Part shown: piece by piece, positions 7,314 to 30,776 of the stretch
How positions within the stretch are numbered: position 1 is the stretch's first letter
Layout: each line of letters opens with the position of its first letter
NCBI GenBank assembly: GCA_039920205.1
Contig: JBDSEC010000038.1
Span: 1-30,808 of the forward strand
Length of the DNA stretch: 30,808 nucleotides
Reading direction: 5' to 3'
Origin: Pyrinomonadaceae bacterium
Lineage (GTDB): Bacteria; Acidobacteriota; Blastocatellia; Pyrinomonadales; Pyrinomonadaceae
The notes under the pieces: model-generated
Database searches by the model: none
What the model saw: only the letters and a program-made list of their open reading frames with translations
Told to the model about the DNA's origin: nothing
Program-made: the position numbers and the translations under genes

Positions 7314-8822
7314 GTGTCATCTGTACAACCAACACCAAAAGAATCACCGCGCAAATATCAGCTGCTGATCGACGGACAATGGGTCGATGCCGCGTCGGGC
7401 AAGACCTTTGTCACACCCAACCCTGCCACCGGGCAGCCGCTGGCGGAAGTGGCGGAAGCGGACGCCGAGGATGTTGACCGCGCCGTAGCGGCGGCGCGCA
7501 AAGCGTTCGAAGGTCCGTGGTCAAAGATCAGCGCCCGTGAACGCGGTCGCAAGATCTACAAATTGGCGCAATTGTTGGAAGCCAAAACCAAAGAGATCGC
7601 CGAGCTCGAGACTTCCGATAATGGAAAGCCGATCAAGGAATCGCTCTACTTTGACGTACCCAGCGCGGTTGAGAATTTCGAATATTTCGCCGGTTGGGCG
7701 ACCAAGATAGAAGGCGAGACCATCCCCGTCCCCGGTCAGTTCTTTAACTACACTCTGCGCGAACCGCTGGGCGTGTGCGGACAGATCATACCGTGGAATT
7801 TTCCCTTGTTGATGGCGGCTTGGAAATTGGCGCCGGCGCTGGCGGCGGGCAACACCATCGTTTTGAAGCCGGCGGAACAGACTCCGGTCACGGCCATGGA
7901 GTTGGGCCAACTGATATTGGAGGCTGGTATTCCCGATGGCGTAGTGAATATCGTTCCGGGGTTTGGCCCGACGGCCGGCGCGGCGTTGGCCGGGCATCCG
8001 GGCATCGACAAAATAGCGTTCACCGGCTCGACTGAGATCGGTAAGGTGATCGCCCACGCGGCGGCGAACAACCTGACCAAGGTCTCACTGGAACTTGGCG
8101 GCAAATCCCCCAACGTCGTTTTCGCCGATGCCAATTTGGACCAAGCAGTGAACGCCACCATGATGGGCATCTTCTTTAATCAAGGACAGATCTGCTGCGC
8201 CGGTTCACGCGTCTTTTTGCAGGAAGAGATCAAGGATGAATTCCTTTCGCGTTTATCGGAAACGGCCGCCAAGATCCGTATTGGCGATCCGTCGAATAAA
8301 GACACGCAAATGGGGCCGCAGGTCTCATCCGAACAGTTAGACCGCGTAAAATCGTACACCGACATTGCGCGGGGCGAAGGCGCGACGGTGATGATCGGCG
8401 GCGAATGCCCGGCGATGGAGGGCGATCTGGCCGGTGGGTACTTTTTTCAGCCGACCATCTTTTCAGAAGTCAAAAATGACATGCGCGTCGCACGCGAAGA
8501 GATCTTCGGGCCGGTGGTCAGTGTTATCTCGTTCAGTGACGAAGCCGATCTGCTGCGTCAAGCGAACGACTCGATCTATGGTTTGGCCGCGGGAATTTTT
8601 ACCCGCGACATTGTTCGGGCACACAGATTTGCTCGTGATGTTAAGGCCGGCGTGGTCTGGATCAATACCTGGAACATGTTTAATGCGGCTTCGCCATTTG
8701 GCGGATACAAGCAGTCCGGCTATGGCCGCGAGATGGGCCACCACGCGATCGACCTTTACACGCAAACCAAAAGCGTCTGGGTAGATCTCTCTGATCGGCC
8801 GGGGGGATGGTACGGGAAATAA
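7314..8822 (+). CDS. NAD-dependent aldehyde dehydrogenase
   Basis: IIPWNFP, LKPAEQTP, FTGSTEIG, catalytic Glu in LELGGKSP, catalytic Cys in GQICCAGSR, EEIFGPV, FGGYKQSG. Confidence 0.96.
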   Translation: MSSVQPTPKESPRKYQLLIDGQWVDAASGKTFVTPNPATGQPLAEVAEADAEDVDRAVAAARKAFEGPWSKISARERGRKIYKLAQLLEAKTKEIAELETSDNGKPIKESLYFDVPSAVENFEYFAGWATKIEGETIPVPGQFFNYTLREPLGVCGQIIPWNFPLLMAAWKLAPALAAGNTIVLKPAEQTPVTAMELGQLILEAGIPDGVVNIVPGFGPTAGAALAGHPGIDKIAFTGSTEIGKVIAHAAANNLTKVSLELGGKSPNVVFADANLDQAVNATMMGIFFNQGQICCAGSRVFLQEEIKDEFLSRLSETAAKIRIGDPSNKDTQMGPQVSSEQLDRVKSYTDIARGEGATVMIGGECPAMEGDLAGGYFFQPTIFSEVKNDMRVAREEIFGPVVSVISFSDEADLLRQANDSIYGLAAGIFTRDIVRAHRFARDVKAGVVWINTWNMFNAASPFGGYKQSGYGREMGHHAIDLYTQTKSVWVDLSDRPGGWYGK

Positions 8823-8926
8823 TGGATAATGGATAATGGACAATGGGAAATGGTTAATGGCTAATGGATGGAGTCACGGCAAATTCTTCATTATCCATTG
8901 TCCATTATCCATTCTCCATTGTTTTT
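8821..8926 (+). repeat. Inverted heptamer arrays (AATGGAN)x7 and (ATTNTCC)x4, probable terminator of the ALDH gene
   Basis: Seven AATGG(A/G/T/C)N units at 8821-8869, complementary units at 8890-8921, then TTTTT. Confidence 0.8.
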
Positions 8927-8970
8927 CTCTCCCTTTTTCGTCAGTTTGGTAAATTAAGGAGAGAGTTACA

Positions 8971-9321
8971 ATGCAAATGAAGTCGATAAGTTTGGGCCTG
9001 ATCCTCCTCGCGGGCGCTCTGATGTTGACGGCGTGCCCTAGCCGCACCACCATATCGAAGATCAACGCCGATCCGGGCCGGTATCACAATAAGGAAGTCG
9101 CGGTCGTGGGTCGCGTGACCAACAGTTACGGGATCCTCGACCGTGGCGTTTACGAGATTGACGACGGCACCGGCCGCATGTGGGTCGTGACCACGCGCGG
9201 AGTTCCGTCGAAAGGAACCCGGGTCGGTGTGAAAGGTTATGTCTACCCATCGCTGAATGTCGGTATCAAGAATTTCGGCGTCGGAATGGAAGAGACCGAC
9301 CGGCGCACGGAAGGCAATTAG
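8971..9321 (+). CDS. Small lipoprotein, OB-fold-like
   Basis: AGGAGAG RBS, signal peptide with lipobox LTAC, EVAVVGRVT...YEIDDGTGRMWVV pattern typical of extracytoplasmic OB folds. Confidence 0.8.
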   Translation: MQMKSISLGLILLAGALMLTACPSRTTISKINADPGRYHNKEVAVVGRVTNSYGILDRGVYEIDDGTGRMWVVTTRGVPSKGTRVGVKGYVYPSLNVGIKNFGVGMEETDRRTEGN

Positions 9322-9416
9322 GCTCAGCCGATCCCTGTTTGTTTAGGGGTGCAAATAAAAGAGCGAGTTTGTTGTTATCATTAGAGGTGGATGTCTTGCG
9401 CTGAAGTCGAGTGTTT

Positions 9417-9507
9417 GTAGCCCCGCCATCAGGCGGAATCGTTATTAACCGGCTCGTTCCATTCATTAAGACATTTACTGAACGGTTCCGCCTGAAGGCG
9501 GGGCTAC
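9417..9507. repeat. GTAG-family REP doublet in inverted orientation (REPIN-like)
   Basis: GTAGCCCCGCCATCAGGCGGA (9417-9437) versus the reverse complement of 9487-9507, GTAGCCCCGCCTTCAGGCGGA: 20 of 21 identical. Confidence 0.8.
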
Positions 9508-9611
9508 GAGCGCGGGCTTAACTTCACCATCTCGAACTTTTCGCTGCACCCAGCTAAGCAGCGCGGCTCGCCGGCACTTTAGATGCGGGCGAGCCGCAAT
9601 TCTATTATCAA

Positions 9612-23008: not shown

Positions 23009-23039
23009 TAATGCGTAATTCAGGCACAGATCACCTCAT
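23009..23039 (-). promoter_or_regulatory. Candidate ECF promoter, copy A (ATGAGG-N18-CGCATTA)
   Basis: Minus strand reads ATGAGG tgatctgtgcctgaatta CGCATTA, about 115 bp upstream of the ATG at 22893. Same words and spacer as copy B. Confidence 0.65.
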
Positions 23040-23182: not shown

Positions 23183-25012
23183 TCAGTGATGCTCAAGTCG
23201 AAGCAGATAGACAAGTGTATCACCATTATATTTGAGCGCGACCTCCTTATTTTCTTCATCAACCGCCACCCGCGGTTTGGGATATTGCGGCGAATTCAAA
23301 AAATTTCTTACGCCCTCGCTCGATCCGAGGTCGCTGATCAAACCACGGTCACGCCGGTTGGCTAGCCCCTTGAGCGCCTCGAGCGAGGGAATTGGCATCG
23401 ACGAGTACACCAACCACAATTTCTCGGTGCCTTGGATAGCGTCGAAGGCGATCCAGCTATCCGCGGGTACCTGCAGCTCGTTACCCGCGGACAGTCGTGA
23501 ATTGCCGGCGTTGGTCGTGGACGAAGGGAATAGGATCACGAACGAACTCGGCTGACCGCTGGTGGCAGGTCCCTCATTAAAAACATAGAGCTGGCCGTCT
23601 TGCGGGCTGCGCAGGTGCAAACGGATCTGATAGTCGTTTTCGAAAACTATCTCTTTTCCCAAGCGGAACGGTGCTTGAAACGGCTTACCGTCCCGGTATT
23701 TCTGCACCTCGATCCAGTAGCTAAGTTGGCGTTCGGGGGCGAATGACGCTGGCCCCGGTGATGCGGGTGACGGGTGGGCCGAGCGCCAGAGCTTTACCGC
23801 GACAAAAGCGGCACCTGCCAGCAGCAACCCTGTGATCAATACGAATAGGACCGTCCGGGCTTTTGATCGGCCGACTTTCCACGGCGGTTGGCCGAGGGAA
23901 TTCATAGGGGCGGACTGCGCGCCGCTGGTAGAGCCCAAACTAGGTTCCAAGTCGCGGTGCAGCGCTTGGAGATCTTCAACCAATTCAGCCGCCGCCGCAT
24001 AACGTTGACGGCGATCCTTGGCGAGTAACTTGCCGAGGACCAGTGCCAGTTTGGCTGTCGCCGCGCGGTTTTCCAACTTTAACGGAAAGGGGTCGCGCTC
24101 TAAAATGGCGGCGATCACATCGCCACGGCTTGGACCACTAAAAGGCGCGGCGCCGGCGATCATTTCGTAGAGCACGACGCCCAGACTCCAAAGATCTGTG
24201 CGCGCGTCCACCGAAAAGGCCCGAACTTGTTCCGGCGACATATATGCGGTGGTGCCCATCAATAACCCGGGCGTGGTCAAGTACGAGTCGCTCGTTGCAC
24301 CCCCGTGGGATGGATCTGGCGCGTATTTGGCCAGGCCGAAATCCAAGATCTTTATCCGGCCGCGTGCGTCCAGCATGATATTTTCCGGTTTAATGTCGCG
24401 GTGAACGATGCCGATCTGATGGGCTTCAGCCAGGGCGCCCGCGATCTGTCCGGCGATCCGCAACGCCTCCTTGATCGCCAAGGGGCCCCGCGTTATTATC
24501 CGGCGCAAGGTCTCGCCGGCAACAAATTCCATGGCGATAAAATGTCGGCCATCGGCCTGCTCGATCTCGTAAATACTGGCAAGATTTGGATGGTTCAAGG
24601 CCGAAGCCGCGCGGGCTTCTTGACGGAATCGTCGAACCAGGTCCGGATCATCCGCCAGATGGTCCGGCATCAATTTTAGCGCGACTTGGCGGCCCAAACG
24701 GGAATCTTCGGCCAAGTAAACCTCGCCCATTCCGCCGGCGCCCAACAAGCTGATGATCCGATACGGGCCTAGCACCGCTCCGTCTAGCTCACCCGTCAAT
24801 GGATCGATCAACAGTTCCGCCGCCATTTCAAATGCCGGAGCGTCAAGAAAACTACCGGGCCGCTCGTCGGCGTTGAGTAAGGCCTCTACTTCAGCACGCA
24901 GTTCGGCATCCGCGCCGCAAGCATCCGCTAGAAACGCCGGTCGCTCGGATTCCGGTTGCTCAAGGGCGGCATGAAAGTGCCGCTTGATGATCTGGTAGCG
25001 CTCGGGATTCAT
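23183..25012 (-). CDS. Hanks-type Ser/Thr protein kinase, one TM helix, C-terminal DUF4384-like ectodomain
   Basis: GAGGMGEVY, VALK, HRDIKPEN, DFGLAK, YMSPEQ, DLWSLG; TM VLFVLITGLLLAGAAFVAV; N-terminal ERPAFLADACGADAELRAEVEALL extension typical of ECF-linked kinases. Confidence 0.95.
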   Translation of the reverse strand: MNPERYQIIKRHFHAALEQPESERPAFLADACGADAELRAEVEALLNADERPGSFLDAPAFEMAAELLIDPLTGELDGAVLGPYRIISLLGAGGMGEVYLAEDSRLGRQVALKLMPDHLADDPDLVRRFRQEARAASALNHPNLASIYEIEQADGRHFIAMEFVAGETLRRIITRGPLAIKEALRIAGQIAGALAEAHQIGIVHRDIKPENIMLDARGRIKILDFGLAKYAPDPSHGGATSDSYLTTPGLLMGTTAYMSPEQVRAFSVDARTDLWSLGVVLYEMIAGAAPFSGPSRGDVIAAILERDPFPLKLENRAATAKLALVLGKLLAKDRRQRYAAAAELVEDLQALHRDLEPSLGSTSGAQSAPMNSLGQPPWKVGRSKARTVLFVLITGLLLAGAAFVAVKLWRSAHPSPASPGPASFAPERQLSYWIEVQKYRDGKPFQAPFRLGKEIVFENDYQIRLHLRSPQDGQLYVFNEGPATSGQPSSFVILFPSSTTNAGNSRLSAGNELQVPADSWIAFDAIQGTEKLWLVYSSMPIPSLEALKGLANRRDRGLISDLGSSEGVRNFLNSPQYPKPRVAVDEENKEVALKYNGDTLVYLLRLEHH

Positions 25013-25039
25013 GCACGTGTTGATCGTTAAGGTCGAGAT

Positions 25040-25603
25040 CTAGGCTTCAAGTTCGCGGCGCAACCAGGCCCGCGCCATTTTCCATTCGCGTTCGATGGTG
25101 GCATGCGAACGCGACATGACTTCGGCGGCCTCTTCGATGGTTAGTCCACCGAAAAAGCGCAATTCGACGATCTGGCTTTGTTGTGGATCCAGTTTCTCCA
25201 GTCTTTTTAAGGCAGCATGCAGATTCAGTAGGTCGACGCCGGGATCACCCGCGACCTGGTTCGCCTCGCTTAGCGACACACTGTATTGATCTCCCCCGCG
25301 TTTGGCCGCCCGGTGCGCGCGGGCATGATCTACCAAAATTCGGCGCATGAGTTTGGCTGAGATCCCGAAAAAATGGGCCCGATTTTGCCATTTGATGTTG
25401 TGTTGGTCGATAAGGCGGACAAAGACTTCGTTGATCAACGCCGTAGGCTGCAACGTATGATCTTGCCGTTCTCGTTCTAAATAATTGCCCGCCAAGCGCC
25501 GCAGATCCTGATAGATCAACGGCACCAATTCGTCGAGCGCACTCGCTTCACCGTTGCTCCAACGTTCCAAAACCACGGTAATGTTTGGTTGGGCCTGCGT
25601 CAC
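25040..25603 (-). CDS. ECF sigma factor, kinase-associated (ECF43 / TIGR02999-like)
   Basis: ALDELVPLIYQDLRRLA, HTLQPTALINE, WQNRAHFF, MRRILVDHAR..KRGG, RFFGGLTIEE. GTG 25603 follows a GGAAGGG RBS; 27 bp from the kinase start. Confidence 0.92.
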   Translation of the reverse strand: MTQAQPNITVVLERWSNGEASALDELVPLIYQDLRRLAGNYLERERQDHTLQPTALINEVFVRLIDQHNIKWQNRAHFFGISAKLMRRILVDHARAHRAAKRGGDQYSVSLSEANQVAGDPGVDLLNLHAALKRLEKLDPQQSQIVELRFFGGLTIEEAAEVMSRSHATIEREWKMARAWLRRELEA

Positions 25604-25769
25604 GTCTGACCCTTCCAGGTGATAGCTTGCAAATACGGAAGTCGGAGAGGGGTTTGGCTGCTGCCGGAAAAAGTTGGTCGAAAGGAAAAACCGCAACAAA
25701 GGCGAACCGGGCAAGTCGAAGAGTACAGGCGGCGAAACAATTTATTCATTCGATCCAGCGTGATCCAGC

Positions 25770-26316
25770 GTGCTTAACTAGTTGAGCAGTTTACCCCTGA
25801 ATCTTGGGAACGGCAACACATTGAAGTTCCTCGCAAAGTTAATAATTGATTGGATTGTGGTGGCGCGAACTTTCTACGCCAAGGTCACGGTAGGTCCGCA
25901 CGCAGAAAACCGAACCCGTTTGGCCGGATCCGCAAATTCGCCGAGGGGTGGCCGAATGCGGTCCGTCGGGTTCGGTCAATTGCCTGCAGGGGTGAATCAA
26001 ACTCTAATCGAGGCCGGTAATGCGGTCGCGGCTATCGGCCGCATCCACCGGCCCATTCAACCCGTCCGTAATCCTTCGGCCACAGCTAGGGGACCTAACT
26101 GTAGGTTACTTACGGGTCAGGGAATCGGTCTCTTCACTTCTTGATCGGGATCAAGAAGTGTCGACCACTCTCCCTCAGACGCTCGCATCGGCCTTTAACA
26201 AGTTCGGTACGCTCAGGAGCGGGAAGCTGCCGAACCCGTCGCCGTTCGATCTGGCACTCAGATCTCGACCGGCGTCATTGTCCCGGTGGGAGAACGAGCG
26301 TTGACGAACCGTCCTC
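25770..26316. ncRNA. Candidate structured non-coding RNA or long structured leader (no known family recognised)
   Basis: At least seven stems read by eye, e.g. ACCGAACCCG/CGGGTTCGGT (25909-25976), GGCCGGT/ACCGGCC (26012-26053), CACTTCTTGATC/GATCAAGAAGTG (26135-26160), GACGCTCG/CGAGCGTT (26178-26302). No credible ORF; strand unresolved. Confidence 0.5.
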
Positions 26317-26322
26317 ACTTAG

Positions 26323-26353
26323 TAATGCGGAAGTACGGGAAAAAGTCCCTCAT
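26323..26353 (-). promoter_or_regulatory. Candidate ECF promoter, copy B (ATGAGG-N18-CGCATTA)
   Basis: Minus strand reads ATGAGG gactttttcccgtacttc CGCATTA, immediately ahead of the structured region. Confidence 0.65.
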
Positions 26354-26467
26354 AAAAAGGAGAATATTTTTTGGGGAGGGTTGTGCGGTCAGTTTTTGGC
26401 CGTTAGCCATTAGCCCGGGGAGGTATCAGCCACCAGGTTCAATGAGGTAACACTCGGGCGCCCGGCC

Positions 26468-26591
26468 GGGACATCGGGCGACCCGCCCGCAGGTTGCGGA
26501 GCCACGATCGACACCGAAAGCATCCAACGTAACCTGTAGGCTTTTTCCTGACTAGACTCCTCCGCATCAGCGGGCAGGTCGCCCGCGCTCC
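26468..26591. repeat. REP-like inverted doublet (GGAGCGCGGGCGACCTGCCCGC type)
   Basis: CGGGCGACCCGCCCGCaggtTGCGGAG on the left is the near reverse complement of CTCCGCAtcaGCGGGCAGGTCGCCCG on the right. Confidence 0.65.
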
Positions 26592-26668
26592 GGCGTTCGT
26601 CCGCCCGTGAGCGTGTAAATTATTTTGTGTAAATGGTCACTGAGCCGATAACCAGCTAAGGTTGGAGG

Positions 26669-27901
26669 ATGGCAAAAGGAGCACGGGTGACCAAAGAAAA
26701 AGATCTGATTGACGAGTTATTAAAGGATTACGAAAAGCCGGAGGATTTGCTGGGGGAAAATGGGCTGCTAAAGGAACTGACGAAGCGGCTGCTGGAGCGA
26801 GTAATGGGAGCGGAACTGACGCATCACGTTGGTTACGAGAAACACGATCCGGCGGGACATAATAGCGGGAACTCGCGGAACGGGAGTTCGGCGAAAACGC
26901 TGAAAGGAAGTTTTGGCACGATGCCGCTGGCGGTGCCGCGGGATCGAAACGGCACCTTTGAGCCACAGATCATTGAAAAGAATCAGACGCATTTTACCGG
27001 GTTCGACGCGAATATCATTTCGCTCTATTCGCGAGGCCTGTCGGTGCGTGAGATCCAGCAACATCTGGAAGAGATCTACCATGTCGAAGTTTCGCCGGCG
27101 TTGATCTCGGGGGTAACGGACGGGGTGGCGGAAGAGGTCAAAAGCTGGCAGAACCGGCAATTGGATCCGCTCTACTTCGTGGTTTATCTGGACGCAATTC
27201 AGTTCAAGGTGAGGGATAACGGACAGGTCAGAAACAAAGCGGTGTACTTGGCGATCGGCATCACGCGTGAAGGCAAGAAGGAAGTATTAGGCCTGTGGAT
27301 CGCGCAAACGGAAGGAGCCAAGTTTTGGTTGCAAGTAGTGACGGAACTGAAGAATCGGGGCGTAAAAGACATCATTATCGCGTGCGTGGATGGGCTCAAA
27401 GGGTTCCCCGAAGCGATTGAAAGCGTGTTCCCGCAAACTCAAGTACAGCTTTGTATCGTGCATCTCGTACGGCACTCGCTGAATTATGTCGGCTGGAAAC
27501 AGCGCAAGGAAGTCGCCCATGATCTGCGGTTGATCTACTCCGCGCCGACCGAGGTAGCGGCCGAACAGCAGTTGGCCGAGTTTGCGGAAAAGTGGGACTC
27601 CAAGTTCCCGATGATCGCGCGGTCCTGGCGAAATAACTGGGCCCGGGTGATTCCCCTATTCGGCTATCCGCCGGAGATTCGCCGGATCATTTATACGACC
27701 AATGCGATCGAGTCGTTGAACATGTCGCTGCGCAAAGTGACCAAAACGCGGGGGTCCTTCCCCCAGGACGAGGCGGTCTTCAAATTACTCTATTTGGCGC
27801 TACGCAATATCGCCAAGAAGTGGACCATGCCGGTACAAAACTGGAAGCAGGCGCTTAACTGCTTCGCCTTGCTTTATGAAGACCGACTGGCAGAACAGTG
27901 A
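26669..27901 (+). CDS. IS256-family (mutator-type) DDE transposase
   Basis: GGAGG RBS; NSRNG, VPRDRNGTFEP, DDE residues in YLDAI, CVDGLKGF and TTNAIESLN. Confidence 0.96.
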   Translation: MAKGARVTKEKDLIDELLKDYEKPEDLLGENGLLKELTKRLLERVMGAELTHHVGYEKHDPAGHNSGNSRNGSSAKTLKGSFGTMPLAVPRDRNGTFEPQIIEKNQTHFTGFDANIISLYSRGLSVREIQQHLEEIYHVEVSPALISGVTDGVAEEVKSWQNRQLDPLYFVVYLDAIQFKVRDNGQVRNKAVYLAIGITREGKKEVLGLWIAQTEGAKFWLQVVTELKNRGVKDIIIACVDGLKGFPEAIESVFPQTQVQLCIVHLVRHSLNYVGWKQRKEVAHDLRLIYSAPTEVAAEQQLAEFAEKWDSKFPMIARSWRNNWARVIPLFGYPPEIRRIIYTTNAIESLNMSLRKVTKTRGSFPQDEAVFKLLYLALRNIAKKWTMPVQNWKQALNCFALLYEDRLAEQ

Positions 27902-27941
27902 ACTCGGTAACATGCGGACCCTGATCGCATCATGGAAATTT

Positions 27942-28003
27942 TTTTCCGGGCGCCGGAGCGGCGCAAAAACGCGCGTTTTTACACCGCTCCGGCGCCCGGA
28001 AAA
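27942..28003. terminator. 62-bp near-perfect palindrome in the IS 3' region
   Basis: TTTTCCGGGCGCCGGAGCGG / CCGCTCCGGCGCCCGGAAAA 20-bp arms enclosing the perfect palindrome AAAAACGCGCGTTTTT. Confidence 0.7.
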
Positions 28004-28083
28004 CCAAAGATTAAGCAGAATCAAAACAACGGAACCGAAATCAAACCAAAGATCATTTACACAGAATATTTGACACTACCGCA

Positions 28084-28674
28084 ATGTTACGGTCCGAAGT
28101 AGAGGAACTACACTACATCACACCGATCGCAATTGTGCCTTCGATATTGCAGCAGGGCATTTTGTCGCATACACTTGCCGATGATGTGCCCCATGAATCT
28201 GTTGCAATGGCTGATATTCAGGATCGGCGCCGATTGAAACAAGTGGGAAACGGACGATCGCTGCACGATTACGTCAACTTGTATTTCAATGCGCACAATC
28301 CAATGCTAAGTCGATGTCGTGATCGGAACTCCTCCATTTGTGTTTTACGCGTCAATCCAATGGTATTGGATCATTCTCAAGCCGTTTTTTCCGACCGCAA
28401 TGCTGCCGCTGATATGGCGCTTTTTTCGACAGTTGACCTGGGACTCGCGGCGATCGACCGAACCCGACTTTTTGCGCGCTATTGGACACATCCGAACGAC
28501 CCGATGGAAGAGAGTCGACACAAGGCTGAAATGTGCGCTGAAGCCTTGATTCCAGACCGAGTTGACGGGAAATCTGTTATGGGCGCCTATGTTGCCAATC
28601 GTGCTGCGCGAGAGATGTTCTTGGGGCTGAAGACCGGTCTAAGTGTCCAAATCAACACAAACCTGTTCTTTTAA
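28084..28674 (+). CDS. darT: DarT DNA ADP-ribosyltransferase toxin (DUF4433)
   Basis: LHYITPI..VPSILQQGILS, LHDYVNLYFNAHNPML, FSDRNAA, catalytic Glu in CAEALIP; directly upstream of a macrodomain gene. Confidence 0.88.
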   Translation: MLRSEVEELHYITPIAIVPSILQQGILSHTLADDVPHESVAMADIQDRRRLKQVGNGRSLHDYVNLYFNAHNPMLSRCRDRNSSICVLRVNPMVLDHSQAVFSDRNAAADMALFSTVDLGLAAIDRTRLFARYWTHPNDPMEESRHKAEMCAEALIPDRVDGKSVMGAYVANRAAREMFLGLKTGLSVQINTNLFF

Positions 28675-28681
28675 CGATGCC

Positions 28682-29794
28682 ATGAAAGTTTTGATTGCAG
28701 ACATATTGAAGTCCGATTCCCAGACGCTGATCAATACGGTGAATTGCGTTGGCATCATGGGTAAGGGCATTGCCCTGGAATTTAAGAACCGGTACCCCGA
28801 GATGTTTGACGATTATGTCCGGCGATGTGCCAGACACGAAGTTAAGCCGGGTGTGCCATATATTTATCGCGGTCTATTCCCGCCCTACATAATCAATTTC
28901 CCGACTAAGGATCACTGGAAGTCGGTCTCGCGGCTAGCGGACATTGAGCGCGGGCTGCAGATCCTTTTGGAAAAATACCGGGAATGGGAGGTCACATCGC
29001 TGGCTATTCCGCCCTTGGGTTGTGGAAATGGACAGCTTGAGTGGAAACAGGTCGGTCCAATGATCTATCACTATGCCAAGCAGATGGATATCCCCGTTGA
29101 GATGTATGCACCATACGGTACGCCGCCGAAGGAGTTAACCATAGATTTTCTTTCTGCGGAACCGGCAGCGTCGGCCAAAATAAGGTCGCCGCCGACCGCT
29201 ATGAATCCAGCGTGGATCGGATTGGTCGAGATACTTCGACAGATCGAATCGAACCCATATCACTGGCCGGTCGGACGAATCATTTTTCAAAAGATCGCGT
29301 ATGTCGCGACCCGGGAAGGTCTTCCTACCGGGCTAGTTTATGCCAAAGGCAGTTACGGTCCCTTTAGTCCCGAGTTGAAAAACGTGCAAATGAAATTGTC
29401 CAATAGTAATTTGCTTCAGGAGGAGCGAAAGGGGCAGTTATTTGTTTTAACCGTTGGTTCCAAGTTCGAGCAAGTTCGCCAGGAATTTCAAGCCTCGCTG
29501 GTCGAATGGAAGTCGATCATTGATCGGACTACGGATCTGTTTCTGCGAATGAACTCGAACCAAGCCGAGGTAGTTGCGACAGTGATCTACTCGGCAGATC
29601 AGTTGCGCAAAGTGAAATGTGGCCCGCCATCCGAAGTCGAGGTGTTTGAATCTGTAATGCTTTGGAAACAGAAACGGTTGGAGAAGGCAGAGGTTGCTTC
29701 CGCGATCCGGAACCTTGCGATGCTTCGCTGGTTGGACGTTACGTTCGATGCGAATCTACCGGTTGTTGAAGAAGACGAGTTCGCGCCGGCTTAA
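28682..29794 (+). CDS. darG: DarG macrodomain antitoxin (DarTG2 type)
   Basis: LINTVNCVGIMGKGIALEFK, IINFPTKDHWK, AIPPLGCGNGQLEW, C-terminal QKIAY...YGPFS domain. ATG 28682 lies 7 bp after the darT stop. Confidence 0.92.
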   Translation: MKVLIADILKSDSQTLINTVNCVGIMGKGIALEFKNRYPEMFDDYVRRCARHEVKPGVPYIYRGLFPPYIINFPTKDHWKSVSRLADIERGLQILLEKYREWEVTSLAIPPLGCGNGQLEWKQVGPMIYHYAKQMDIPVEMYAPYGTPPKELTIDFLSAEPAASAKIRSPPTAMNPAWIGLVEILRQIESNPYHWPVGRIIFQKIAYVATREGLPTGLVYAKGSYGPFSPELKNVQMKLSNSNLLQEERKGQLFVLTVGSKFEQVRQEFQASLVEWKSIIDRTTDLFLRMNSNQAEVVATVIYSADQLRKVKCGPPSEVEVFESVMLWKQKRLEKAEVASAIRNLAMLRWLDVTFDANLPVVEEDEFAPA

Positions 29795-29930
29795 CTGCAA
29801 GTTTGGTCAATAGTGGCGGGCAGTGGTGGCCTGGTTCAAACCCGGTCGCCGCTGCCCGTGTTTTTGTGGAAAGAATATTTATGCCGTGGAACAATGCCAA
29901 GGGCACAAGCGCGCTGGGCCAGGGAAACCG

Positions 29931-30022
29931 GCGCAACCCCGTTGGGGTTGGAACACAAACCGCGTTTCCCTAGGGTAGCGAAGCGCAACCCTAGGCTGTA
30001 AGACGCAATCCCGTTGGGATTG
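29931..30022. repeat. Composite palindromic REP/MITE-like element
   Basis: CAACCCCGTTGGGGTTG and CAATCCCGTTGGGATTG palindromes bracket CCTAGGGT...ACCCTAGG. Confidence 0.7.
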
Positions 30023-30346: not shown

Positions 30347-30454
30347 GAAGCAGACGGTACCGACCTCATATCCGCGTGGCTCTCGCAGCTCGACTCGATT
30401 CTGAGGTGGATTAGGCTCGGGATGAAAGCGTCGGCGGCAGCGGCCCCGGTTTTC

Positions 30455-30632
30455 ATCGCGTAGCGATGGCGTGATTGTAGACGTGGGTTTTGAACCCACG
30501 GCGAGTGGATGAAATTGTTTGCGTCGCGTAGCCGACGCCGTGATTCAGGCGTCTGCTACGTGACGCGAAATCCAAAACGCCTTTCCGTGGGTTAAAACCC
30601 ACGGCTAAAATCATGTGACCGGTACCCGGTCG
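30455..30632. repeat. REP-like cluster (CGTGGGTT..AACCCACGG x2 with GTCGCGTAGC-type words)
   Basis: CGTGGGTTTTGAACCCACGG (about 30482) and CCGTGGGTTAAAACCCACGG (about 30585); CATCGCGTAGCGATG, CGTCGCGTAGCCGACG and a complementary GCTACGTGACG. Confidence 0.7.
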
Positions 30633-30660
30633 GGCGGCGGAAAAGCAAAGAATAATTAAC

Positions 30661-30734
30661 AATGGATAGTGGACAATGGACAATGGAAAATGTCGGAAAG
30701 TAGACGGTAGACAGTAGCCGGTAGCCAGTAGAAT
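30661..30734 (+). repeat. Two abutting heptamer arrays (AATGGAN)x5 and (GTAGMCN)x5
   Basis: aatggat agtggac aatggac aatggaa aatgtcg, then gtagacg gtagaca gtagccg gtagcca gtagaat. Confidence 0.8.
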
Positions 30735-30776
30735 AAGGACCGCCGTTGGCGGAACTTATTTGCGATTTACCTGTTA

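Follow-up and report, generated by a model that had tools for sequence, protein, structure and literature searches.

The 30,808-nt window analysed here is the entire contig JBDSEC010000038.1 of a metagenome-assembled genome of a Pyrinomonadaceae bacterium (G000; 677 contigs, 4.7-Mb assembly, ~80% complete). Between a gene for an extracytoplasmic function (ECF) sigma factor and a transposase gene, it carries a hairpin-rich stretch that is a real, conserved, non-coding feature without a match in Rfam. Our favoured reading, which we regard as evenly balanced between right and wrong, is that the minus strand from 26320 to ~25903 forms a gene of its own, for a non-coding RNA of ~415 nt that is highly folded, terminated, driven by the promoter of a regulon and trans-acting. 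The RNA is probably an output of the kinase-controlled sigma signalling system encoded beside it, because it follows the same rare promoter signature as the predicted other target of the sigma factor. The most fitting description is that of an ECF-regulon non-coding RNA that is restricted to one lineage and larger than is usual for its kind.

Since spurious open reading frames (ORFs) are commonly called over such regions, the translation of the long plus-strand frame in the hairpin-rich stretch was used as a protein query to find relatives. Through the database proteins P0001 and P0002, this search retrieved two Logan contigs of related soil bacteria: L129 (4.6 kb), which carries the kinase gene, the sigma gene and the hairpin region, and L130 (1.6 kb). 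They are 82% and 78% identical to the window, respectively, and are taken to be from other species of the same genus as the window organism. The window, L129 and L130 form the full-length set (n = 3). Three-way alignment revealed a conserved block at 25898-26333 with 80-97% identity to the two relatives, flanked by sequence of only 34-57% identity with indels (25851-25897) and of 47-63% identity (26334-26450). Substitutions within the block fall evenly on the three codon phases, at 12:10:12 and 19:15:17 in the two comparisons, and thus show no periodicity; in the neighbouring sigma coding sequence most of them are at third positions (14:5:37 and 20:3:55). The divergence of the block (11.6% and 15.4%) is about half that at the third positions of the sigma gene (24% and 35%). 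No conserved reading frame was supported, as indels shift the frame and stops are present in the relatives. The products of the plus-strand ORF would be 94, 58 and 126 aa long in the three homologs, their protein identity (81% and 66%) lies below the nucleotide identity, and the ORF is broken in L129 by a TGA at 26194-26196 that is also present in contigs from RNA libraries. Public assemblies nevertheless list it as the proteins P0001 (58 aa) and P0002 (126 aa). No Pfam match was obtained for any ORF or frame in the gap, and a phmmer search with the ORF product against 1.84 billion representatives (~15 billion predicted proteins) detected no further relative; its sole extra match, P0004, was rejected as an unrelated tandem-repeat protein. 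The shorter spurious ORFs over the RNA, used as leads to further homologs, gave none. An origin from a decayed gene was also rejected, as the ORFs of the gap had no Pfam match and no tblastx match in the genome. Because the block is conserved, its substitutions are spread evenly over the codon phases and the plus-strand ORF is broken in relatives, it is under selection as non-coding sequence.

A sequence-only reading of the window had proposed that a densely paired unit of ~540 nt (25770-26316) was a novel structured RNA. The structured RNA held up and every stem that had been listed is present, whereas the extent had to be revised to the conserved block and a unit of ~415 nt. The same reading had suggested an RNA of ~410 nt on the minus strand, behind a promoter motif and ending at the stem 25909-25976 with its short U-run. 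This agrees with the conserved block, with the lack of a coding signature, with RNA-library contigs that fall on just this block, and with the conservation of both end signals in L129 and L130 described below. It had also noted no match to a riboswitch, ribozyme or housekeeping RNA, and a search against Rfam 15 bore this out: there was no match at the gathering score in the entire window, the families covered including riboswitches, ribozymes, RNase P, tmRNA, 6S, group I/II introns, OLE, ROOL, GOLLD, HEARO and Acido-1. At E<=10, the region 25600-26700 gave four chance-level matches (14-18 bits), none of them inside 25898-26320.

The candidate promoter of the RNA, promoter B, has the pattern TGAGG-N18-CGCATTA, and the same pattern recurs upstream of the operon that encodes the CHAT protease (promoter A). 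The exact pattern occurs twice in the 4.7-Mb assembly (0.5 expected), both times at this locus and on the minus strand; with one mismatch allowed, the assembly gave 13 extra matches versus 10 in the control, which is the noise level. Both blocks of promoter B are invariant in L129 and L130, and the spacer varies in sequence at a fixed length. L129 and five other genera (L035, L036, L037, L038 and L044) also have the promoter A site. All ten sites that were aligned, from six genomes and two contigs, retain T-GAGG and CGCATTA around variable spacers. Genomes of sister genera hold one to three exact sites each, and the control pattern gave approximately zero. Because the motif occurs only one to three times per genome, the regulon appears to be very small and well defined. 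The pattern matches what would be expected of a target promoter of the local sigma factor. We infer that this sigma factor reads it, that the RNA is made from the minus strand with the ends given in Table 1, and that the RNA acts in trans.

B-type sites are also found in sister genera as a third copy of the promoter, where they read TGAGGGAsTT with an A/T tract ahead. An A/T-rich tract that resembles an UP element, and may act as one, lies directly upstream of the -35 block in the window, L129 and L130, and is likewise present ahead of the B-type promoters of L133 and L136. In genome G003 (L133, 1501-2886), the B-type promoter leads through a 260-nt leader to a gene whose product belongs to the HBL family of Bacillus pore-forming proteins (PF05791, E 1e-33). 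In G099 (L136, 281-1530), it is located just behind the DUF4384 gene of the locus and leads to an unrelated 356-aa ORF without a Pfam match. No relatives of these two proteins were found in G000, and outside the promoter and about the first 35 nt the RNA body showed no likeness to the two leaders. Since B-type sites front different genes, the promoter cassette appears to be shared and its cargo to be lineage-specific, the cargo in this genus being the RNA.

At the other end of the block, a scan for terminators gives a single terminator-like site in the homologous stretch of each of the three sequences (window, L129 and L130); its place and its strand, minus, are the same in all of them. The terminal hairpin (helices 14-15) is 97-100% paired and 90-93% identical, its loop included. 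Beyond it, after a poorly conserved spacer, lies TTGCCG-N17-TAAACT, which matches the sigma-70 consensus at 8/12 positions. Its two hexamers are invariant in the three homologs around a spacer that varies at fixed length. It was not flagged by the scan but is plausibly a separate, weak sigma-70-type promoter of the sigma-kinase operon. Because the hairpin at 25771-25788 and the sequence 25789-25897 fall in this sigma promoter and 5' untranslated region and in the poorly conserved spacer, both are placed outside the RNA. At the predicted start of the sigma-kinase transcript there is a 10-nt direct repeat (GATCCAGCGT twice, 25752-25771) followed by the small palindrome at 25771-25788, which is lost in L130.

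The sigma gene itself was delimited to 187 codons. A 224-aa ORF (25040-25714) was rejected as overlong, as the GTG at 25603 is where homology starts and where the gene called in L129 starts. In region 2.2, the protein has QPTA (within QPTALINE, residues 52-59) where most ECF sigma factors have DxxD. In kinase-activated ECF43 members, the acidic motif is replaced by a QTTA consensus (PMC13147305), and the factor described here likewise has a threonine-containing, uncharged motif in place of DxxD and a Hanks-type kinase gene adjacent to it. On sequence grounds it fits an ECF43-like, kinase-activated type (PMC13147305; PMC7826278).

Evidence that the block is transcribed comes from two soil metatranscriptomes of two studies (X1 and X2), which contain a few 31-mers of the stretch. 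When contigs from these libraries were aligned to 25000-26460, they matched only in 25982-26302, with 88-95% identity, and left 25000-25981 (the sigma gene included) and 26303-26460 uncovered. One RNA contig terminates at ~26305, some 10 nt inside the predicted start. Placed on the minus-strand fold, eight of the X1 changes listed stay paired, one creates a new pair and three break a pair; the plus-strand model tolerates the changes too. Record 6 of X2 (38 nt, 84% identity, coding-like flanks) was judged to be a chance match. A repeat search for sequencing runs returned the same two runs only.

The stretch folds better than expected from its dinucleotide composition. Relative to dinucleotide shuffles, 25770-26316 has z -2.97 on the plus strand and -4.29 on the minus strand, and the refined unit 25897-26320 has z -6.18 (minus) and -4.11 (plus); 0/100 shuffles matched the native folding in any run on either interval. 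Minus-strand z-scores of the three homologs are -6.18, -4.29 and -2.75. However, in a scan of the whole window several intergenic palindromes (8801-9000, 9401-9600, 27801-28100 and 30401-30700) fold better than the block. Because the genome is rich in palindromic elements, fold stability by itself says little here, and the case for an RNA rests on conservation. The RNAalifold consensus energy is -161 kcal/mol for the minus strand and -145 for the plus strand. The 15 helices of the minus-strand consensus model comprise 142 pairs; 95.5% of cells pair, a share that drops to 33-43% when the partners are slid. Four of its pairs are changed on both sides yet remain paired, a count reached by 5/500 shuffles; the plus-strand model has three compensatory pairs (69/500 shuffles reach three). 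Column variability is 17% at paired and 32% at unpaired positions (p=0.0009), a comparison that is partly circular as the fold was predicted from the same sequences. Taken together, these three-sequence data support a fold but fall short of proof.

In the minus-strand model, the RNA consists of a 5' domain with a long-range closing helix, three successive hairpins, an unpaired conserved stretch and a long terminal hairpin (Table 1). The first 23 nt (alignment columns 1-23) are invariant. Hairpin II has an invariant palindromic core; the perfect 12-bp stem of the window is only 7-9 bp long in L129 and L130, and X1 contigs show two pair-keeping double changes in it (26139/26156 and, read by hand, 26136/26159) along with two mismatches. 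Hairpin III carries one compensatory pair per helix in L130, a C-G to U-A and a U-A to C-G change. In hairpin IV, either of two single changes, 26019 A>G in X2 or 26045 C>T in X1, makes the pair 26019-26045 Watson-Crick. Two words are repeated along the molecule: CCGAACCCGT occurs at 25910 and again at 26230, and AACCCGTC at 26059 and again at 26233. The motif CACCCCU of the unpaired stretch is found again in the apical loop of the terminal hairpin (25950..25944). Both copies resemble an anti-Shine-Dalgarno sequence and may be contact or binding sites. Inspection of the ribosome-binding sites of the genes of the locus gave no obvious complement to CACCCCU.

Table 1. Features of the sigma-kinase locus and of the proposed RNA (window coordinates)
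Feature	Coordinates	Strand	Details
Hanks-type Ser/Thr kinase gene	23183-25012	-	weak DUF4384 signal as well
Promoter A (candidate)	23009..23038	-	second TGAGG-N18-CGCATTA; between kinase gene and orf132/TPR-CHAT
ECF sigma factor gene	25040..25603	-	PF07638, E 1e-57; GTG start at 25603, 187 aa
Gap holding the hairpin-rich stretch			950 nt; between sigma gene (left) and IS256/Mutator transposase gene (right)
Candidate sigma-70-like promoter of the sigma-kinase operon	25788..25816	-	TTGCCG (25816..25811), 17 nt, TAAACT (25793..25788)
Poorly conserved spacer	25851..25897		34-57% identity, indels; between RNA and the sigma gene's own promoter region
Proposed non-coding RNA	25903..26320	-	~415 nt; predicted 5' end 26316-26320, predicted 3' end ~25903
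Terminal hairpin and U-run, terminator-like	25903..25977	-	hairpin 25977-25908, UUUUCU 25908..25903
Invariant, mostly unpaired stretch	25982..25998	-	GAUUCACCCCUGCAGGC; carries CACCCCU (25994..25988); invariant in three homologs
Hairpin IV	26011..26054	-	17 pairs, GC-rich; helix 12, 98% of cells paired
Hairpin III	26060..26117	-	two stacked helices (10-11)
Hairpin II	26118..26176	-	invariant palindromic core CTTGATC-GGG-GATCAAG (plus strand, 26140-26156); helices 8-9
5' domain	26177..26314	-	closing helix 26314-26303/26187-26177 around three hairpins; consensus helices 2-7
Spurious ORF over the RNA	26020-26304	+	94 aa; GAGG-N6-ATG (Shine-Dalgarno-like)
Promoter B (candidate)	26323..26352	-	TGAGG (26352..26348), 18-nt spacer, CGCATTA (26329..26323); directly upstream of RNA
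A/T-rich tract, UP-element-like	26353..26376	-	directly upstream of -35; predicted function

Several observations weigh against a terminated, minus-strand, regulon-driven RNA gene. The U-run has only four consecutive U, and the number of terminators predicted in the region is not above that in shuffles. The RNA-library contigs are strand-blind, lack transcript ends and come from relatives rather than from this organism; they stop short of the terminal hairpin (25898-25981 is uncovered) and so say nothing on the 3' end. The two libraries were also found with this same stretch as the query, and hence are biased toward it. The fold was predicted from only three full-length homologs with a mean column identity of 92%, and covariation is thin. 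Wobble pairs, which the sequence-only reading had already found split, are 3 versus 1 in the pairs common to both strand models and leave the strand unsettled, and the plus-strand model is also 95.9% paired. The strand call rests on the promoter and terminator signals. Recognition of the motif by the sigma factor and the promoter activity are predictions from sequence.

The main rival is a leader that feeds the sigma-kinase operon: promoter B would then serve for autoregulation, and the terminal hairpin would be a conditional terminator (an attenuator or riboswitch responding to a ligand, a protein or an alternative pairing). Autoregulation is common among ECF sigma factors, the sigma gene follows the RNA directly on the same strand, and the short U-run makes read-through plausible. 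Strand swapping is also possible, as two helices share a 6-bp core (CCGAAC/GUUCGG); in the window, the 5' arm of one of them (26241..26230) is complementary at 11/12 positions to that of the terminal hairpin (25975..25964), which offers an alternative pairing in the manner of an antiterminator. This long alternative pairing is, however, reduced to a 6-7 bp core in L129 and L130. Moreover, the hairpin is separated from the sigma gene by the poorly conserved spacer and by a sigma-70-like promoter footprint that is itself conserved, the RNA-library contigs lie on the block and none on the sigma gene, and in five sister genera both the motif and the fold are missing upstream at the orthologous sigma loci. 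We consider a leader unlikely, if still a serious contender. A conserved element that functions as DNA (for instance a regulatory region, or clustered palindromes to which proteins bind), or a lineage relic whose transcripts have no function of their own, seems to us improbable. It would account for the near-perfect palindromy of most stems, which fold on either strand, for the operator-like invariant core at 26140-26156, for the abundance of intergenic palindromes in this genome and for the confinement to one genus. It would not account for 420 nt of unbroken conservation, about as strong as in the neighbouring coding sequence and far in excess of what binding sites require, nor for the four compensatory pairs and several one-sided changes that preserve G-U pairs. 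The block is also single-copy, unlike the repeat families of the genome, is bracketed by a conserved promoter and a terminator-like site, and is matched by RNA-library contigs.

That the RNA is instead made from the plus strand, divergently from the sigma gene, with the minus-strand promoter motif serving something else, is more doubtful still. In its favour are the plus-strand z-score and the high pairing of its own model, a 26026 T>C change that completes a U-G pair, and a C>T change at 26061 in L130 that keeps the stem 25990-25998/26055-26063 only on that strand. But no conserved promoter footprint lies upstream in this orientation, conservation being lowest there, in the spacer 25851-25897; the scan finds no terminator-like site; and the minus strand does better in energy, z-score and covariation score alike. 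A gene for a small protein is very improbable. The plus-strand ORF is almost exactly coextensive with the RNA-contig coverage, is preceded by a Shine-Dalgarno-like GAGG and has been recorded twice as a protein; yet codon periodicity is absent, its length differs among the homologs through the TGA and frame-shifting indels, its protein identity is under the nucleotide identity, and it has neither a Pfam match nor any other protein relative. Least credible, to the point of being negligible, is membership of a repeat family (repetitive extragenic palindromes or miniature inverted-repeat transposable elements) or of an IS256 insertion sequence. Although a 120-nt palindromic repeat (26465-26608) and an IS256-family element (~26609-27988) adjoin the block, the block is single-copy in the assembly and matches no repeat family, tblastx finds nothing beyond this contig, and L129 and L130 carry the block while their homology to the window ends before the insertion sequence.

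The RNA is known from G000, from the two assembled relatives and from several variants in the two RNA libraries, that is, from one genus. No second copy was found in the ~80% complete G000 assembly, and tblastx of the block against the genome gave nothing outside its own contig. Searching 60 relatives with the gap and 400 family genomes with the core by blastn (~460 genomes) yielded no homolog. A covariance model of the 3' domain (R1), run against 150 family genomes, 150 class genomes and the orthologous loci, gave one chance-level match (E 0.068). In all, no RNA homolog was found among ~550 other genomes of the family and class; the unpublished genomes G016, G031 and G133 figure only within these negative tallies. 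Three conserved stretches of the RNA, searched as exact 22-23-mers, had no match in genome and viral contig collections, and a metagenome scan with the kinase protein gave a best match of 46% identity and no closer relatives. Orthologous sigma genes in other genera have upstream gaps of 130-570 nt. When the upstream regions of ten such loci were compared by blastn (word 7), nhmmer and tblastx, only sigma coding sequence aligned. Because these gaps lack similarity, the RNA does not appear to be a conserved part of the locus across genera. The tie to the ECF-kinase-CHAT locus that the sequence-only reading had proposed is upheld through the shared promoter and fails at the level of synteny.

Under the favoured reading, the Hanks-type kinase would activate the ECF43-like sigma factor, which would guide RNA polymerase to promoters A and B. 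Promoter A would drive orf132, the TPR-CHAT protease and the DUF4384 protein, and promoter B the ~415-nt RNA, whose transcription would end at the conserved terminal hairpin and U-run; the sigma-kinase operon would use its own, weaker sigma-70-like promoter. The RNA would then work in trans as the riboregulatory arm of a small regulon. The two invariant, exposed CACCCCU stretches, in the unpaired stretch and in the apical loop of the terminal hairpin, would be its likeliest contacts for the ribosome-binding sites of mRNAs. A bolder version, which we advance tentatively and think unlikely, is that the RNA, rather than being an ordinary base-pairing small RNA, represents a new class of large multi-domain RNA (a protein-binding or protein-sequestering scaffold, a sensor or a catalytic RNA) and is one of only two dedicated outputs of a kinase-gated ECF sigma factor, while in sister genera the same promoter cassette drives protein cargo such as the HBL-like pore-forming protein.

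Several known systems bear comparison with such an arrangement. GsrN is likewise a stand-alone non-coding RNA gene under an ECF-regulon promoter that provides a post-transcriptional arm of the regulon. GsrN is ~100 nt long and is found in Alphaproteobacteria, where its EcfG-type sigma factor is controlled by partner switching. The RNA described here is about four times longer, has at least five helical domains and is paired with a kinase-gated sigma factor, although the two were compared by description and Rfam scans only. MicA, RybB and MicL of the enterobacterial sigma-E regulon offer another likeness, in that small RNAs with the promoter of the sigma factor add a repressing arm to an ECF factor otherwise limited to activation. 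Those RNAs, of 70-300 nt, are Hfq-dependent, and the outer-membrane proteins that they target are known; the present RNA matches none of them in Rfam. OLE, ROOL, GOLLD and raiA are similar in extending over several hundred nt with many helices, conserved loops and no coding capacity; none of them gave a match, and they span many genera with strong covariation, whereas this RNA is confined to one genus. With respect to the signalling proteins, we know of no RNA gene reported as a direct target of a kinase-activated ECF43 sigma factor, on the basis of a literature search that was not exhaustive. VP0055 of Vibrio parahaemolyticus, known as EcfP-PknT, is an ECF43 member. In that system, too, the ECF gene lies beside a Hanks-type kinase gene (PMC7826278). 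EcfK-PknS of Xanthomonas citri likewise has an ECF gene beside a Hanks-type kinase gene. In none of these loci, the present one included, is an anti-sigma gene recognised adjacent to the sigma gene, and the sigma factor here has QPTA, with its threonine, where the kinase-activated ECF43 consensus is QTTA (PMC13147305). The output reported for EcfK-PknS is a protein system, type VI secretion (PMC13147305).

The minus-strand genes to the left of the gap encode the ECF sigma factor, the Hanks-type kinase, a small ORF (orf132), a TPR-CHAT protease and a free DUF4384 protein. The order sigma-kinase-(orf132)-CHAT-DUF4384 is kept in ten genomes of other genera. Acidobacteriota are the most frequent taxon in the Atlas clusters to which the kinase and the CHAT protein belong, which is weak evidence for an acidobacterial origin; nothing pointed to a planctomycete. 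To the right are an IS256/Mutator-family transposase gene and then a DarT/macro-domain pair. The palindromic repeat element of ~120 nt at 26465-26608 is present in at least 30 copies in the assembly and adjoins the RNA block without sharing sequence with it. Tandem arrays with a period of 120 nt are frequent in its family (contigs C240, C266, C16, C450 and C232), and many copies lie at contig ends; the repeat occupies the equivalent place in L129 and L130, in tandem in the latter. The insertion sequence occupies 26609-27988, with its transposase at 26669-27901 (PF00872). Its first 180 nt are found again, with 95% identity, at the end of contig C382, and its right end lies within a 62-nt near-perfect palindrome (27942-28003). 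Because the homology of L129 and L130 to the window stops before it, the element may be an insertion particular to G000. Directly behind it, DarT (PF14487) and a DarG-like macro-domain protein (28084-29794) form a DNA ADP-ribosylating toxin-antitoxin/defence module. Elsewhere in the window, highly stable intergenic palindromes (z down to -10) at 8801-9000, 9401-9600, 29801-30000 and 30401-30700, and short ATGG-rich tandem repeats (GGATAATGGACAATGG-like) at ~8820-8900 and 30690-30740, show no sequence kinship to the RNA block.

Gene callers have logged a spurious protein over this RNA, as P0001 and P0002. Kinase-gated ECF sigma factors are widespread in soil bacteria, and few of their outputs are known. 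How far the RNA matters in general is uncertain, because its known occurrence is limited to one uncultured genus. In the assembled genome, the regulon appears to comprise two promoters, one of which would drive a large folded RNA without an Rfam match. If this is true, it would be, to our knowledge, the first RNA output reported for kinase-gated ECF signalling, in a compact circuit in which a kinase and a sigma factor act through one promoter motif on one RNA and one protease operon. Should the RNA instead belong to a new class of large RNAs, it would place an RNA effector or regulator inside a bacterial stress or defence module.

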